A DNA stretch of 64,000 bases. Source: a virus. A program made the position numbers and the translations under genes. Of this stretch, positions 14,892 through 32,206 are shown piece by piece (within the stretch, counting starts at the first letter, position 1; every line of letters starts with the position of its first letter). Location of the stretch: IMG/VR virus record IMGVR_UViG_3300045049_000234, positions 32,001-96,000 of that record. The stretch is one strand, 5' to 3'. A model generated the notes under the pieces. The model was not told the DNA's origin. It made no database searches and saw nothing but the letters and a program-made list of their open reading frames with translations.

Positions 14892-15073
14892 GGGCCAAGG
14901 AACACGAGCTGCGACGGCGGGTAGAACCGGTGGTCGTTCGGGAAGTCATCCCACGATACGCGGAATGATCCGTCGCGTTCCTCAACGACAGTGCCCGGCG
15001 ACGGGCAGTCCACAAGGGCCACCCTGTCGCCGGGCACGAACGCCGGGCCGGACCTACGCCGCCGGGCTGTCAT
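14888..15073 (-). CDS. Small SH3-like hypothetical protein
   Basis: FVPGDRVAL...GTVVE...FRVSWD pattern; overlaps the Ro60 stop. Confidence 0.45.
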   Translation of the reverse strand: MTARRRRSGPAFVPGDRVALVDCPSPGTVVEERDGSFRVSWDDFPNDHRFYPPSQLVFLGP

Positions 15074-16772
15074 CCTGCTCCCACGGCCAGCGGTCGCCGC
15101 GACCAGCCGCCGCCCACGCGAACATCTTGAACACCGCGTCCGAGAAACCGCCGACCTCGAACCGGTTCGGCTGCTTGGTGTCGATCGACGCCTTGGAGTA
15201 GCCCGTGGTGTCGATCCCGAACAGCGGCACCGACGCCGGGACCGCGTCGGACACCGACGTGGCGCGCGGCGCGACCAGCCCGGACCGGCGCACGCCGTAC
15301 CCGCCGCTGTAGTACCCGCCGTACGCGAACGCCTGGCCGTCGGTGACCACGATTACCCGGTCGTGGCCCTTGAACGTGGCCTCGATGGCGCCGATGGTCT
15401 GCGTGCCGTGGCCCACCTCGCCGATGCGCTTGGTGAACCGGTCGATCTCGCGCAGCATGCTGCCGCCCAGCGCGATGTCGTGCTGGAACACGCCGTCCGC
15501 GTAGCCGTACAGGCTCACTTTGCCGCCGGTGCGGTACGCCAGCGCCACGCCGATCAGCGCGCCGATGTCCACGTGCCGGATCTGCGACTTGCCAGACACC
15601 GGGGACTGCATGGAGCTGGAGGTGTCCACCAGCACCAGCGTGCGCCCGTCCAGGAGCGGGATGTTCGCCGTGGCCGCTGCCAGCGCCTGCTCCAGCGCGT
15701 GACCCCACCGCAGCGACGGTGCGGCCTTGTACGCCGACAGGAACCGGTACGGGAACTGCCGAGAGCGCGCCACTTCCGCCGGGTCGGCGATCTTCGCCGC
15801 CACCTGCGCCGCGACCTTGTCAGAGACCTTCGCCTCGTCGAAGTTGCGCAGGTTGCGGATCAGCGCCATGTAGCCCATCGACGGGATGATCGCCTCCCAC
15901 GCGGCGCGGTCCATCGGACCCTGAAGCCAACCGGCCAGGATCTCCCACGTGATGCCCGCGTCGTTCAGACGCTGCGCCCCGCCGTCGGCCAGCAGGACCG
16001 CACGGCGCTCCGCCACCGGCAGCGCCATCAGATCGCGGTTCGCGCGCAGGATGCGCAGCGACTCGGGAACGTCCAGCTCCGGCTCGTGCGGCTTGGACAC
16101 CACGTAGTCGAACAGGTCGTGCTGCCACGGCGCCTTGATGGTCTGCGCGGAGTCGTCGCGGTCGCCCGAGTGCGTCAGGTCCAGCACGCGGCGCCACGAG
16201 AAGCCGGGGTGCGCCACGTCGCCGTACTTGATGAAATTGCGCTCGTTGCCCATGCGGATCATGGCGTCGGCGATACCGCGCTTGAGCGGCTTGGGCAACG
16301 CCATCCCGTAGCGCGACGTCCAGTACGCCAAAAGCTCGCCGGGCTCGTCCGGGCGCTGGAGCGCGTCGCGCACGACGCTGCGCGCGGAGATGGTCGGCAG
16401 CGGGTACTGCGTGCCGGTGCGGCCGGTGCCCATCTCGTCGCGGCGCGCGTGGACGTACTCCGCCGCCGCGACGACCGACGCCGAGCGCATCAGGCCCTCG
16501 CTGCGAAGCCACTTGATGAACCGCGCGGTCCAGTCGGGGTGCTGGACGGCGCACTGACGCACCAGGTTGCGGAACCGGACGTCGCGGTCGCCCGCCTTCT
16601 CGTAGAACGTGTCCTCGCCGACCATGTTCGTCACGGCCAGCAGGAACAGATCGGACTGCGGGGTGCGGGTCCACGCGGCGCCGCCCTCGTGGGTGGTGGT
16701 GCGCTCGTCGGTGGTCCGGATGACGCCCGGCGCAGTGGTCTGCTTGCCGAGCTGCTTGGTGAACTTCGCCAC
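15054..16772 (-). CDS. rsr: Ro60 / TROVE-domain RNA-binding protein (Rsr-like) with C-terminal vWA
   Basis: THEGG, DTFYE, MRS, KY, TWE, MGYMALIRNLRN, SRQFPYRFLSAY TROVE motifs; vWA MIDAS LVDTSSSM and VIVVTDGQ. Confidence 0.93.
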   Translation of the reverse strand: MAKFTKQLGKQTTAPGVIRTTDERTTTHEGGAAWTRTPQSDLFLLAVTNMVGEDTFYEKAGDRDVRFRNLVRQCAVQHPDWTARFIKWLRSEGLMRSASVVAAAEYVHARRDEMGTGRTGTQYPLPTISARSVVRDALQRPDEPGELLAYWTSRYGMALPKPLKRGIADAMIRMGNERNFIKYGDVAHPGFSWRRVLDLTHSGDRDDSAQTIKAPWQHDLFDYVVSKPHEPELDVPESLRILRANRDLMALPVAERRAVLLADGGAQRLNDAGITWEILAGWLQGPMDRAAWEAIIPSMGYMALIRNLRNFDEAKVSDKVAAQVAAKIADPAEVARSRQFPYRFLSAYKAAPSLRWGHALEQALAAATANIPLLDGRTLVLVDTSSSMQSPVSGKSQIRHVDIGALIGVALAYRTGGKVSLYGYADGVFQHDIALGGSMLREIDRFTKRIGEVGHGTQTIGAIEATFKGHDRVIVVTDGQAFAYGGYYSGGYGVRRSGLVAPRATSVSDAVPASVPLFGIDTTGYSKASIDTKQPNRFEVGGFSDAVFKMFAWAAAGRGDRWPWEQDDSPAA

Positions 16773-16821
16773 GGTCGGGTTCCTCTCTACGTGCGTGTGC
16801 TGTGCGGGAGGAACCGGCAGG

Positions 16822-16961
16822 GGTGACCCGAGATTGAAGCGACGGCGGCTGTTTTGACTGATGCTCTACCAAGTGAGCTACCGAGGGTAAAGCCCCCCGG
16901 ATTGGGATCGAACCAATAACCTTCAGTTCCGAAGTATCCGCCATCAGGGCACCGGGTCACC
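16822..16961 (-). ncRNA. Y-RNA-like unit (YrlA-type permuted tRNA: T arm, closed acceptor, D arm)
   Basis: Terminal 9-bp stem; AUUGG-UUCGAUC-CCAAU; CCGGGGG/CCCUCGG; GCUC-ACUUGGUA-GAGC. Confidence 0.85.
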
Positions 16962-16970
16962 GGTGCTGGA

Positions 16971-17099
16971 CCTCCCGAGGTTGGGGTGTGCGGGACTAAG
17001 TTGCCTTAGACCATCTCGGCCACACGCGGCGGACCGCGTGACAGGATTCGAACCTGCGTTCGTTTGCACGAAGTAAGTTCCGCACGGGGCACCGGGAGA
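16971..17099 (-). ncRNA. Y-RNA-like unit (GCAA hairpin, T arm, closed acceptor, D arm)
   Basis: Scaffold CCGGUGCC..UACUUC..CAACCUCGG; GCAGG-UUCGAAU-CCUGU; CACGCGG/CCGCGUG. Confidence 0.82.
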
Positions 17100-17133
17100 T
17101 GCCTTTACTGTCAGTGTTCAGTTGTCAATGGGG

Positions 17134-17279
17134 TCGCGCCCGAGGTTGAGTCGGTGATCGTTGTTCTCTGTTGTGCTGCCGTTACACCACACGCCCCAGG
17201 TGGGGGGCGCGCCGGATTCGAACCGGACCTCCGGTTCCCTAGACCGGTGAAGTAACGATCTCCTTGGCACCGGGCGCGA
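17134..17279 (-). ncRNA. Y-RNA-like unit (anticodon arm AGG, T arm, closed acceptor, D arm)
   Basis: CCGGU-CUAGGGA-ACCGG; CCGG-UUCGAAU-CCGG; CGCGCCCC/GGGGCGUG. Confidence 0.82.
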
Positions 17280-17288
17280 TGTCTGTGG

Positions 17289-17435
17289 GCCGTGTCCGAG
17301 ATTGAGGTCGGACGATCGTGACGTTAGGTGCTCTGGGCCACTGAGCCACAGGGGACACAGTCCCCCGCCGGGATTCGAACCCGGGTCACCCGCTTAAGAG
17401 GCGAAGTAACGATCATCCTGGGCACCGGACACGGC
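17289..17435 (-). ncRNA. Y-RNA-like unit (anticodon arm CUU, T arm, closed acceptor, D arm)
   Basis: UUCGC-CUCUUAA-GCGGG; CCGGG-UUCGAAU-CCCGG; GCUC-AGUGGCCCA-GAGC. Confidence 0.82.
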
Positions 17436-17445
17436 ATCCGTTTAG

Positions 17446-17592
17446 TCCACCCCGAGGTTGAATCAGAGACCGGTATTCTTAAAGAAGGACTCGAACCTTC
17501 ACCTCCGGCTTTTCAAAGCCAGCGTGCTGCCAATTACACCACTCGGCCATGAGTGGCCGAGGAAGTATCGGTATCAATGGCACCGGGATGGA
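17446..17592 (-). ncRNA. Y-RNA-like unit (closed acceptor, D arm, anticodon arm, T arm)
   Basis: CUCGGCCA/UGGCCGAG; GUG-UAAUUGGCAG-CAC; CUGGC-UUUGAAAA-GCCGG; GAAGG-UUCGAGU-CCUUC. Confidence 0.82.
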
Positions 17593-17600
17593 TGCCTGGC

Positions 17601-17712
17601 CCCTCCCGAGATTGAGGTGGCCGACGGAGAACGGGACTTGAACCCGCAGCGTTTCCTTGGAAGGGAAATTTCGAACCATTCGAAGTAACCGTAGACCTGG
17701 GCACCGGGAGGG
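17601..17712 (-). ncRNA. Y-RNA-like unit (D arm, anticodon arm UCC, T arm in canonical order)
   Basis: UUUCC-CUUCCAA-GGAAA; GCGGG-UUCAAGU-CCCGU. Confidence 0.82.
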
Positions 17713-17721
17713 AATTCTATG

Positions 17722-17800
17722 GTGTCCCCGAGATTGAAAGCGGCGGCCGGTGTGTTTCCATTTGGAGTGAAGTAACCGATTGCCTGGGCACCGGGGACAC
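17722..17800 (-). ncRNA. Minimal Y-RNA-like unit with Trp-type anticodon loop
   Basis: Scaffold plus UUCA-CUCCAAA-UGGA. Confidence 0.75.
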
Positions 17801-17806
17801 GTACGC

Positions 17807-17929
17807 GGCATTCCCGAGGTTCACGGTGGATCGACGACGGGGGTTCTCCGTCCCCACGCTCCGCGTGAGGGTTCCCCCTATGGTGCACTGGTGGAGGAAG
17901 TATCGCCGGTCCGAGGCACCGGGAATGCC
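17807..17929 (-). ncRNA. Y-RNA-like unit with non-tRNA insert
   Basis: 10-bp terminal stem and same scaffold motifs; no T-loop. Confidence 0.7.
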
Positions 17930-17953
17930 CACTGTTCAGTTATCAAGAAGCGC

Positions 17954-18033
17954 GTCCCCGAGATTAAGGGCGACGTCCGGAACGGGATTCAAATTTACAG
18001 TTTGAAGTAGCCGGTCGTCTGGGCACCGGGGAC
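17954..18033 (-). ncRNA. Minimal Y-RNA-like unit with Tyr-type anticodon loop
   Basis: Scaffold plus UUCAAA-CUGUAAA-UUUGAA. Confidence 0.78.
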
Positions 18034-18081
18034 AAAGTCGGTGCGTTTCGGCGGGGGTTGGGTTCCCGTTTCAACACGCAT

Positions 18082-18112
18082 AGCGTAGCACATGCGTTAG
18101 ACGGTCACGCAA
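18082..18112 (-). promoter_or_regulatory. Candidate promoter for the Y-RNA array and Ro60
   Basis: Extended -10 TG-C-TACGCT with CTAAC upstream; weak -35. Confidence 0.45.
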
Positions 18113-18118
18113 CACCAT

Positions 18119-18637
18119 TTAGCCGCGCGCCGCGATGTCGGCGAACATGCGCACGCTGTCCACGATGTCGTCCGTCAGCCCCGTCGCCGGGTCCGCCGTG
18201 ATCAGCAGCGTGGGCGCGGTGTGCGCCGTGCGCCGGTTGCCGCGCGTGAGCATGCCCATGGTGAACCCGTCGTCGATCCACGCGAACGGCCGGATGCCCG
18301 CGTACTGCAACACGTGATCCCACTTCCATTCGGCGGTCACGTCGTACTCGGAGAACCGGCGATTCATCGGCGCCACCGGCATCGGGTCCAGCCCGATCAG
18401 CGGCGCCAGGTGGGTGTTCGCGCGGTCGTTCCACGTGGTCGCCCACACGTGTTCCACGATGTCGTCCAGCGACCGCACGCGCTTGACGTCGCCGGGGTCC
18501 AGCACGAGCGGCACCGGGCGCGGCATGCCGGGCAGGTCGATCGTGTGGCGCAGCCACTCGCCGCCGGTCACGTTCTGGAGCGGGTAGCGGTTGAACACCC
18601 CGTCCACATCCCAGAACAGCAGCGGCTTGCCGGTCAC
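18119..18637 (-). CDS. HAD phosphatase, RNA-repair (Swiss-army-knife HAD) type
   Basis: LLFWDVDGV, VWATTW, PFAWIDD, DPATGLT motifs. Confidence 0.8.
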   Translation of the reverse strand: MTGKPLLFWDVDGVFNRYPLQNVTGGEWLRHTIDLPGMPRPVPLVLDPGDVKRVRSLDDIVEHVWATTWNDRANTHLAPLIGLDPMPVAPMNRRFSEYDVTAEWKWDHVLQYAGIRPFAWIDDGFTMGMLTRGNRRTAHTAPTLLITADPATGLTDDIVDSVRMFADIAARG

Positions 18638-19683
18638 CGCGCCTCGGCCGGGATGATCAGCAGCTTGTCGCCGTCGTACATCTTGCGGTTCACAGACGTG
18701 GACTGCACGAAGATCGTGTACTCCGGGTTGATGTCCGGGCTCACCCGCGTGTCGATGTCCGGCAGCCCCAGGATGTCCCGCGCGCCGTCGCCGACGTACA
18801 CGACGCCGGTCTTCTTCTCGTGGACGGCGATGCGCTTGGTGCGCTGGATCGTGACACGGCGCTTGAGTTCGTAGAAGGCCGCGCCGATCCGGTAGTCCAT
18901 GCGCAACTGATCCACAACCCAGTCACGGATCTCCGCGTCCTCGGTCACCGTGGTCAGCGTGTAGGCGCTGCCAGGCAGCGGGGTGAGCGTGGAACGTACG
19001 GTGTCCCGGTTGACGGCGTCGATGCCGGTGGAGAAGATCGCCCGGCTGCCGCGCACGCCCTGCGCCCGGTTCGCCATGAACCGGTCGGTGGCGGCGCGGA
19101 TCGTGTTGCCGACCTCCCGCACACCGTGCGCGGACGTGGTGTCCCACACGGCGATGTTGTCGGCGGCGAACCCGAACCGCTTGGCCTCGAACACGCCCAT
19201 CTGGTTCGGCACCATCACGGCCACCGTCCAGTTGTCCGGCAGTGCGCGCAGCCGCGCGGACAGGTGCGCGGAGGTGTGGATGCGGCTGCGGTTCTCCTCG
19301 CCGTCGGTGATCACGTAGACCAGGAACGCATGGTCGCCGTAGATCTCCGGCGTCTTGGCCAGATCATCCAGCGCCGTCATGGTCGCGTCGATCAGCGCCG
19401 TGTTGCGCTCGGCGCGGTAGTGCTCCGCGATCGAAGGCAGGCGCAGCACGTCCCGATCGTAGAACACGCATTCGGCGGCCTGTTTGACGCCGGGCACGGC
19501 CTCGTTGAACACGTAGACCGTCGCCCGCGTCTCCTGGTCCATCACAGTGGACCGTTCGGCCAGGTGGGACACCATGCCATCCGTGACGGCCACCACGTCG
19601 CGGGCGAACCGGGACATGGACAGCGAGCCGTCCAGCACGATGGCGATGTGGTTGATGTAGCCCTGTGTGGGGTGTTTGTTCAT
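18634..19683 (-). CDS. vWA domain protein
   Basis: IVLDGSLSM, TALIDA, VITDGEENRS. Confidence 0.8.
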   Translation of the reverse strand: MNKHPTQGYINHIAIVLDGSLSMSRFARDVVAVTDGMVSHLAERSTVMDQETRATVYVFNEAVPGVKQAAECVFYDRDVLRLPSIAEHYRAERNTALIDATMTALDDLAKTPEIYGDHAFLVYVITDGEENRSRIHTSAHLSARLRALPDNWTVAVMVPNQMGVFEAKRFGFAADNIAVWDTTSAHGVREVGNTIRAATDRFMANRAQGVRGSRAIFSTGIDAVNRDTVRSTLTPLPGSAYTLTTVTEDAEIRDWVVDQLRMDYRIGAAFYELKRRVTIQRTKRIAVHEKKTGVVYVGDGARDILGLPDIDTRVSPDINPEYTIFVQSTSVNRKMYDGDKLLIIPAEAR

Positions 19684-31925: not shown

Positions 31926-32206
31926 GCGTCCGCCGCCGTGCGCGCCTTGCGGATCTGCGCGCGGGCGCGGGCGATGTGCACACGCACCTGATCCGGCCGT
32001 GCGCGCTGGTCCCACCGAGGGCGCCCCGGCACGCGGTAACCCTCCGGCAGCGGCGTGCGCCAGCCGTCGGCCTTCAGGCTGCGCACCACCGCGCGGGCGT
32101 ACGGCGCGGCCTCAGCCTCGTCGCGCGTGAAGCCCCACACGGTCAAGGCGCGTGCGAACCGCGCCTCCAGGTCTCGCCATGCGGCAGCGCTCTGCGGCGC
32201 CATCAC
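31922..32206 (-). CDS. Hypothetical protein
   Basis: Coupled in operon. Confidence 0.55.
   Translation of the reverse strand: MMAPQSAAAWRDLEARFARALTVWGFTRDEAEAAPYARAVVRSLKADGWRTPLPEGYRVPGRPRWDQRARPDQVRVHIARARAQIRKARTAADA

Follow-up and report, generated by a model that had tools for sequence, protein, structure and literature searches.

What the tRNA-like module does in bacterial Y RNAs, the RNA partners of Ro60 proteins, has been an open question since 2014. In the YrlA family, the stem-loop named "V" was read as a variable arm and called 'less conserved' (Chen 2014, PMC4201824), and YrlA was later said to be without an anticodon loop (Wang 2018, 10.1101/312249); the absence of such a loop is the published view. 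The same RNAs are modified by tRNA enzymes; in Mycobacterium smegmatis, RNase P cuts YrlA in vivo and CCA is added to it (PMC4201824). The subject here is an array of YrlA-like RNAs beside the Ro60 gene of a soil-type actinophage, in which the "V" hairpin of several units has the form of a tRNA anticodon arm. The array was found in a stretch of 64,000 nucleotides (nt), positions 32,001 to 96,000 of the IMG/VR record IMGVR_UViG_3300045049_000234. This stretch is called the window below, and coordinates refer to it unless another source is named.

A second line of earlier work bears on the anticodon loop itself. Conflicts between phage and host, and those that involve toxins, commonly target the anticodon loops of tRNAs (PMC10264068, PMC11555353), and phage tRNAs have been proposed to evade anticodon nucleases (PMC10264068). 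Enterobacteria carry Ro60 and YrlA in an operon that is induced by cleaved tRNA (PMC7790460), and a defence system is known that is countered by a phage Ro60-like protein (PMC11482910).

Anticodon arms on the partner RNAs of a phage Ro60 protein

Nine tandem Y-RNA-like units lie at 16822-18034 on the minus strand, directly upstream of a Ro60 gene on the same strand (15054-16772); about 50 nt separate the end of the array from the TROVE open reading frame (ORF). The gene encodes a Ro60/TROVE plus vWA protein of 572 amino acids (Pfam TROVE 8.9e-15, weak VWA_2). This protein matches PHROG 850, RNA-binding protein, at 1e-45, and Streptomyces and Gordonia phages encode a 'Ro-like RNA binding protein' with which it shares 39% identity. 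The array is a tandem nine-gene set of YrlA-family Y RNAs belonging to the phage Ro60 protein. The initial annotation, made from the sequence alone, had drawn it at 17134-18033, a span that covers units U1 to U7; the array runs further, to 16822.

All nine units follow one plan, with their own closing stem, CCGGUGCC near the 5' end, a middle stem and then UACUUC; UCAAYCUCGG stands near the 3' end of every unit. The handle motif reads CCGGUGCC(N)AG, and relatives show GAUGCG, GAAGCG or GGUGCG in its place. Compared with the published GNCGAAN0-1G / CGAA, the closing-stem motif is similar in place and not identical in sequence. The UAC of UACUUC corresponds to the conserved YUAY of the YrlA of Chen 2014, and the array hairpin is the stem-loop that was named "V" in that work.

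In five units this hairpin consists of a stem of 4-6 base pairs (bp) and a 7-nt loop (CUGUAAA, CUCCAAA, CUUCCAA, CUCUUAA or CUAGGGA) with U33, a purine at position 37 and A38. Folding and coordinates place these loops and the 8-nt loop of a sixth unit on the minus strand where the initial annotation had located them. Letter for letter, U1, U3, U4 and U6 carry the anticodon-loop 7-mers of real actinophage tRNA-Tyr, tRNA-Trp, tRNA-Gly and tRNA-Lys, in that order. Near the U7 loop CUAGGGA in sequence is UUAGGGA, which is present in two bacterial relatives.

The statistical evidence comes from related Ro60 loci. Homologues were taken from the GenBank phages BRock, GiJojo, Alone3, Satis, VanLee, Rabbitrun, Frankenweenie and Atuin, from 32 IMG/VR contigs and from 80 actinobacterial genomes, mostly of Streptomyces, Catenulispora and Streptosporangiales. 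Units were located by the UACUUC motif, scaffold ends being clade-specific; the exact scaffold motifs CCGGTGCC ... TCAAYCTCGG were not found in the GenBank relatives. Phage hairpin counts are based on 117 units, and the pooled phage and bacterial set holds 96 distinct arms. Choosing the first hairpin by energy only was noisy, taking T arms and alternative pairings, and fixed-register counts were used instead.

With the stem fixed at the UUC of UACUUC, 17 of the 117 phage units pair at 5/5 positions around a 7-nt loop, as against 0-4 units for the other loop lengths from 3 to 11. When 66 anticodon loops of real phage tRNAs serve as the reference, 30/117 units have an exact 7-mer match at offsets 7-9, compared with 0-2 units at each offset from 16 to 59. 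Where a T arm follows, the succession of 5-bp stem, 7-nt loop, 3-5-nt variable loop and T arm has the spacing of a tRNA. An alignment of 49 arms gives the consensus TACTTCCACTnnnAATGG, in which only loop columns 34-36 are without a majority base. Covariation amounts to 41 compensatory cells at two inner stem pairs, in a set of arms that had been selected for pairing.

The loops also follow rules peculiar to tRNA. Of the 96 distinct arms, 84% retain U33, 75% R37 and 75% A38, and 38 different triplets are on display. G37 accompanies G36 in 19 of 25 arms and occurs in 2 of the 71 others (Fisher p = 6e-13), and anticodon-type loops with A36 have A37 and A38. When whole loops are considered, 45 of 85 distinct ones are identical to a real tRNA loop; permutation of the triplets among frames gives 30.0 +/- 2.6 (0/5000 permutations). 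Because the loops obey tRNA-specific rules and exceed the permutation expectation, the hairpin is well supported as an anticodon mimic on a Ro60 partner RNA.

Architecture of the units

The units differ in what is mounted on the common handle. Two of them, U1 (17953-18034) and U3 (17722-17800), both on the minus strand as are all the units below, are short and made of the scaffold plus one anticodon-type hairpin, as the initial annotation had recognized. In the minimum free energy (MFE) fold, the hairpin of U1 (17988-18006) has the stem UUCAAA/UUUGAA and the loop CUGUAAA (17994-18000), of Tyr-GUA type. The hairpin of U3 has the stem UUCA/UGGA and the loop CUCCAAA (17761-17767), of Trp-CCA type. 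U4 (17600-17713) is a canonical-order cloverleaf inside the Y stem, with an anticodon arm at 17652-17668 and the Gly-UCC type loop CUUCCAA at 17657-17663; its acceptor stem has two mismatches, and the helix runs on into the Y stem.

The next three units are circularly permuted. U5 (17446-17592) is a permuted tRNA opened at 65/66, with a closed acceptor hairpin, D arm, anticodon arm (17505-17522) and T arm in that order; its loop at 17510-17517 is the 8-nt UUUGAAAA. A tRNA with anticodon ctgg, predicted by ARAGORN at C1:2444-2520 of the phage's own genome and outside the window, likewise implies an 8-nt anticodon loop. U6 (17289-17435) is opened at 26/27 and consists of an anticodon arm (17389-17405; stem UUCGC/GCGGG, loop CUCUUAA at 17394-17400), a 4-nt variable loop, a T arm, a 7-bp closed acceptor stem and a D arm. 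U7 (17134-17279) is permuted as U6, with its anticodon arm at 17231-17247 (stem CCGGU/ACCGG, loop CUAGGGA at 17236-17242).

The remaining units have other hairpins. U8 (16968-17102) is permuted as U6 and has a GCAA tetraloop on its hairpin (17059-17072). U9 (16822-16961) is of the classical YrlA type, with an anticodon stem that is open towards the Ro60-binding stem and no anticodon loop. U2 (17807-17929) is Y-like with an atypical three-hairpin core and a UUC hairpin with a 14-nt loop. Its handle is standard, its core fits neither tRNA nor YrlA, and another of its hairpins has the 7-nt loop AGAACCC.

The YrlA order of T arm, closed acceptor-like stem and D arm is found in U6-U9, with other orders in U4 and U5, and is absent from the YrlB-like U1 and U3. 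All units score below the gathering score of the Rfam YrlA model (RF02553), which is 69 bits. U9 reaches 45.7 bits over the whole model (positions 1-114), the other units score 17-30 bits, and Rfam reports partial YrlA matches for U6 and U8. The Rfam tRNA model (RF00005) exceeds its threshold in U4 (32.2 bits, model positions 1-71) and U5 (36.7 bits, model positions 6-65 only).

ARAGORN called no tRNA in the array as encoded, U4 included. When the halves were re-joined in silico, it called U6 as a 76-nt tRNA-Lys(ctt) and U7 as a 75-nt tRNA-Pro(agg), and re-permuted U5 gave a 75-nt tRNA with the 4-letter anticodon tgaa. Across the family, 71 of 75 re-permuted units are called as full-length tRNAs with the hairpin triplet as anticodon, a result that is partly a consequence of how the pieces were chosen. 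In U5-U7 the arm belongs to a tRNA body that is complete and circularly permuted, and the Ro60 handle leaves this body at 26/27 or 65/66. More generally, the "V" hairpin of actinophages and actinobacteria often forms an anticodon arm in its own right; in such cases the tRNA-like module amounts to a whole permuted tRNA whose handle departs at the 26/27 hinge. No paper describing the YrlA "V" hairpin as an anticodon arm was found in a literature search that was made without the reviews Sim & Wolin 2018 and Sim et al. 2020.

Related loci and the variable triplet

The hairpin recurs at about 40 phage and 80 actinobacterial Ro60 loci. Nearly all sampled loci have 2-5 UACUUC units on the Ro60 strand, mostly upstream of the gene and in a few cases downstream; the nine units described here are the highest count in the sampled set. 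Hairpin-only units are present in many loci, with the loops CUGCAAA, CUGCUAA, CUUCUAA, CUUCCAA, CUCCGAA and CUUCGGA.

The initial annotation had asked whether homologous arrays keep U33 and R37 while the anticodon varies, and both the 96 distinct arms and a set of 14 Streptomyces orthologues behave in this way. In the 14 orthologous units, the triplet is CUU, GAU, CAU, GUU, CCU, GCU or CGA and is among the most variable columns, with stem, T arm, acceptor stem and D arm constant. Inspection of these units for loop-loop pairing showed no complementarity between the triplet and the acceptor loop.

A finer comparison is provided by two phage loci, L010 and L032. About 60 nt lying 5' of the arm contain 1 mismatch, and the 24 nt that follow the arm's loop (3' stem strand, variable loop and T arm) are identical, as against 6 differences at about 10 positions across the loop and closing pair, where the change of the closing pair is compensatory. 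Over the larger intervals L010:3470-4000 and L032:3490-4000, divergence is found in patches at the anticodon-type loop and at the acceptor hairpin, with a nearly identical handle, T arm and D arm, a pattern that looks cassette-like.

Several other features of the related loci were recorded. The array lies downstream of Ro60 in Arthrobacter phage Atuin and three IMG/VR contigs (L006:5771-6223; L030:5847-6181; L031:5949-6268; L033:5866-6017). A second recurrent class of short units has the hairpin UUC-(N)NUUGGU-GAA(A)C, with a loop that is more D-loop-like than anticodon-like (L002:3712, L003:3704, L009:3706, L014:348, L007:3574, L011:3594 and L040:2221). Several 'tRNA' annotations of GenBank phages appear to be Y-RNA modules: tRNA-Arg(tct) of VanLee, tRNA-Arg(cct) of GiJojo, tRNA-Ser(gct) of Alone3 and tRNA-Pro(tgg) of Frankenweenie overlap UACUUC units, and the annotated 'anticodon' is the hairpin loop (L005:3650-3721; L003:3769-3843; L009:3774-3847; L008:3745-3835). 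In Streptomyces phage BRock, a manA-RNA-like element (49.7 bits, threshold 55.2) lies between two tRNA-Lys genes downstream of Ro60 (L002:6079-6242).

Possible functions of the displayed arms

A faithful anticodon arm with a hypervariable triplet, together with units reduced to that hairpin, points to readers of anticodon loops as the missing partners, and it links Ro60 to tRNA-targeting immunity and to phage counter-measures. The function considered first here is that of a YrlA-family array whose anticodon arms are presented by Ro60, most likely as bait or decoys for anticodon-loop nucleases; the probability of this reading is put at roughly one half. Ro60 would hold the array RNAs by their handles, and the RNAs so held would present their arms to proteins that read anticodon loops. 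The likeliest use would be that of a bait or decoy, possibly also of a sensor, in a contest over tRNA, with the variable triplet setting which enzyme is engaged.

Nucleases are the leading candidates because anticodon loops are common targets, because the enterobacterial operon is induced by cleaved tRNA and because a phage Ro60-like protein counters defence. The features that a decoy would need at the level of sequence are present (a faithful loop, U33 and R37), and the decoy function that the initial annotation had proposed for the units is plausible. The loops retain the sequence determinants of the enzymes that modify position 37 (TrmD, MiaA and the t6A enzymes) and are for this reason probably substrates of these enzymes too. 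Since such hairpins are also present in Ro60 loci of Streptomyces and relatives that look chromosomal, an account in terms of phage counter-defence only is too narrow.

A broader version would make Ro60 and YrlA-type RNAs a programmable 'anticodon-arm display' particle. Its triplet would be under diversifying selection to match loop nucleases or toxins, and the particle would serve bacteria as shield or sensor against toxins that cut tRNA and phages, in this case through a panel of nine units, as counter-defence. This proposal is speculative and rather unlikely; if true, it would give YrlA both an effector and a function.

The rival that survives best regards the arm as a structural relic. The stable U-turn loop would aid the fold of the Y RNA or the docking of Ro60, the likeness to an anticodon would come from tRNA descent, positions 34-36 would drift freely and there would be no anticodon reader. 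This explanation, possible though on the unlikely side, draws on observations that weigh against a role for the triplet. In the 14 Streptomyces units, the triplet varies no more than the loop of the acceptor hairpin, which is clearly unconstrained, so that the triplet too may simply be free of constraint. The enrichment of natural anticodons among the displayed triplets is marginal, and not significant given the position frequencies (p = 0.04-0.09). The panel of anticodon loops that the initial annotation had seen in the array holds for U1 and U3-U7 and is not universal, since U8 with its GCAA (GNRA) tetraloop, U9 with a UUCG-like turn and U2 with a 14-nt loop are without an anticodon-type loop, as are roughly half of the relatives' units; all of these manage without the 7-nt loop. 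A model for the origin of YrlA from a dimeric tRNA places the anticodon arm of the first tRNA just upstream of the YrlA T arm, which is the site of the hairpin (10.1101/312249).

Drift nevertheless leaves two regularities unexplained: the tie between G36 and G37 (19/25 against 2/71) and the match between frame and triplet in real loops, which goes beyond permutation. The 7-nt loop has also been kept across about 100 distinct arms on a scaffold-specific UUCNN stem that is unlike the stems of real tRNAs, and hairpin-only units persist in many lineages. These points speak against a relic.

No partner gene linked to the array was found, the HAD_SAK_2 protein encoded beside it and the other neighbours not being conserved at about 120 related Ro60 loci. 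RtcB, an RNA ligase and a CCA-adding enzyme were searched for in the phage, and none is encoded. The anticodons of the array show no relation to those of the phage's own ten predicted tRNAs, the single overlap (Tyr) being about what chance would give. These results count against the decoy reading as well, and the statistics across related sequences ignore shared descent.

Another alternative makes the arms adaptors and not decoys: they would tether Ro60, with PNPase or another nuclease, to host proteins that bind tRNA, such as synthetases or modification enzymes, and in this way reprogram host RNA metabolism. Y RNAs are known as tethers, as in the Deinococcus Ro60-Y RNA-PNPase complex, and the Ro60 of phage phiLo acts with host PNPase (PMC12135203). 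A tRNA-binding effector of YrlA was proposed by Wang 2018 (10.1101/312249), and the determinants for position-37 enzymes are kept. No candidate partner was found nearby or conserved with the array, and one fixed effector would hardly account for an anticodon panel as wide as 34-38 triplets. An adaptor role is improbable.

Working spare tRNAs, for which RNase P would open the closed acceptor loop of the permuted units (U5-U7 and relatives) and CCA would be added, giving two-piece, aminoacylatable tRNAs with a Ro60 handle, would suit the 7-bp acceptor stems, the complete bodies obtained on re-permutation and the cutting by RNase P and the attachment of CCA seen in M. smegmatis (PMC4201824), but are very improbable because the bodies that display Ser- and Leu-type triplets have variable loops of 3-5 nt where the matching synthetases need the long arm, and because the Streptomyces orthologues keep their acceptor stem while the anticodon identity changes, to which may be added the short units without any tRNA body, the mismatched U4 acceptor stem continuous with the Y stem, the lack in the array of a canonical cloverleaf with freeable acceptor ends or of a body matched to its anticodon, and the bulky helix and Ro60 at the 26/27 hinge, which would be unlikely to fit the ribosome.

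Genomic neighbourhood

The record that holds the window is a 111,179-bp viral sequence with direct terminal repeats. G+C makes up 67.6% of the sequence, an endolysin is among the encoded proteins and the relatives of the virus are actinophages. Ten tRNAs of its own are predicted, one of them with the odd 4-letter anticodon described above.

Just upstream of the array, an ORF on the minus strand (18119-18637) encodes a HAD_SAK_2 protein, with the 'Swiss Army Knife' RNA repair HAD domain PF18143 at 30 bits. This protein, a 349-amino-acid vWA-like protein and the products of three other ORFs were considered as partners of the system and set aside, with one weak homologue match beside Ro60 in 120 loci. 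A scan of 14900-18700 on both strands for promoters and terminators found nothing.

Comparison with known systems

In the circularly permuted tRNA genes of the red alga Cyanidioschyzon, the sequence for the 3' portion of the tRNA lies upstream of that for the 5' portion, and removal of the ends yields a normal tRNA. The permuted units of the array resemble these genes in that re-joining gives a standard cloverleaf; they differ in that their ends continue into a conserved protein-binding stem.

The Y RNA Yrn1 of Deinococcus radiodurans binds Ro60, as the array units are predicted to do, and has been modelled with an 'anticodon arm' on a 5-bp stem (PMC4201824). Yrn1 is unlike the array in having a 6-nt loop, no variable arm and another orientation; it belongs to an independent lineage, and no panel of triplets has been described for it. 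Thermus phage phiLo provides the parallel of a phage Ro60, a distant homologue, with the Y-like RNAs Yrl1 and Yrl2 upstream of its gene (PMC12135203). These are two simple hairpin RNAs with a CGAA motif, however, with no tRNA or anticodon mimicry reported, and the effect shown is on host PNPase.

Phage tRNA arrays (van den Berg 2023, PMC10264068; PMC11555353) share with the present array an actinophage setting and an anticodon loop that is contested, and the related phages BRock, GiJojo and Atuin have Ro60 inside tRNA arrays. Those arrays consist of working tRNAs that replace cleaved host tRNAs, whereas the units described here are without a free acceptor end and stand on a Ro60 handle.

The closest relatives are YrlA and YrlB (RF02553; PMC4201824; 10.1101/312249). 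Like the array units, they lie beside Ro60 on the same strand, several per locus, and have a terminal stem with a motif in its 5' strand, followed by YUAY; YrlA further shares the T arm, the closed acceptor-like stem and the D arm. The array departs from them in having nine units and not two, and in a "V" hairpin that is a self-contained anticodon arm. It goes beyond YrlA in mounting three further topologies on the same handle: a cloverleaf in canonical order, a tRNA body broken at 65/66 and the hairpin alone.

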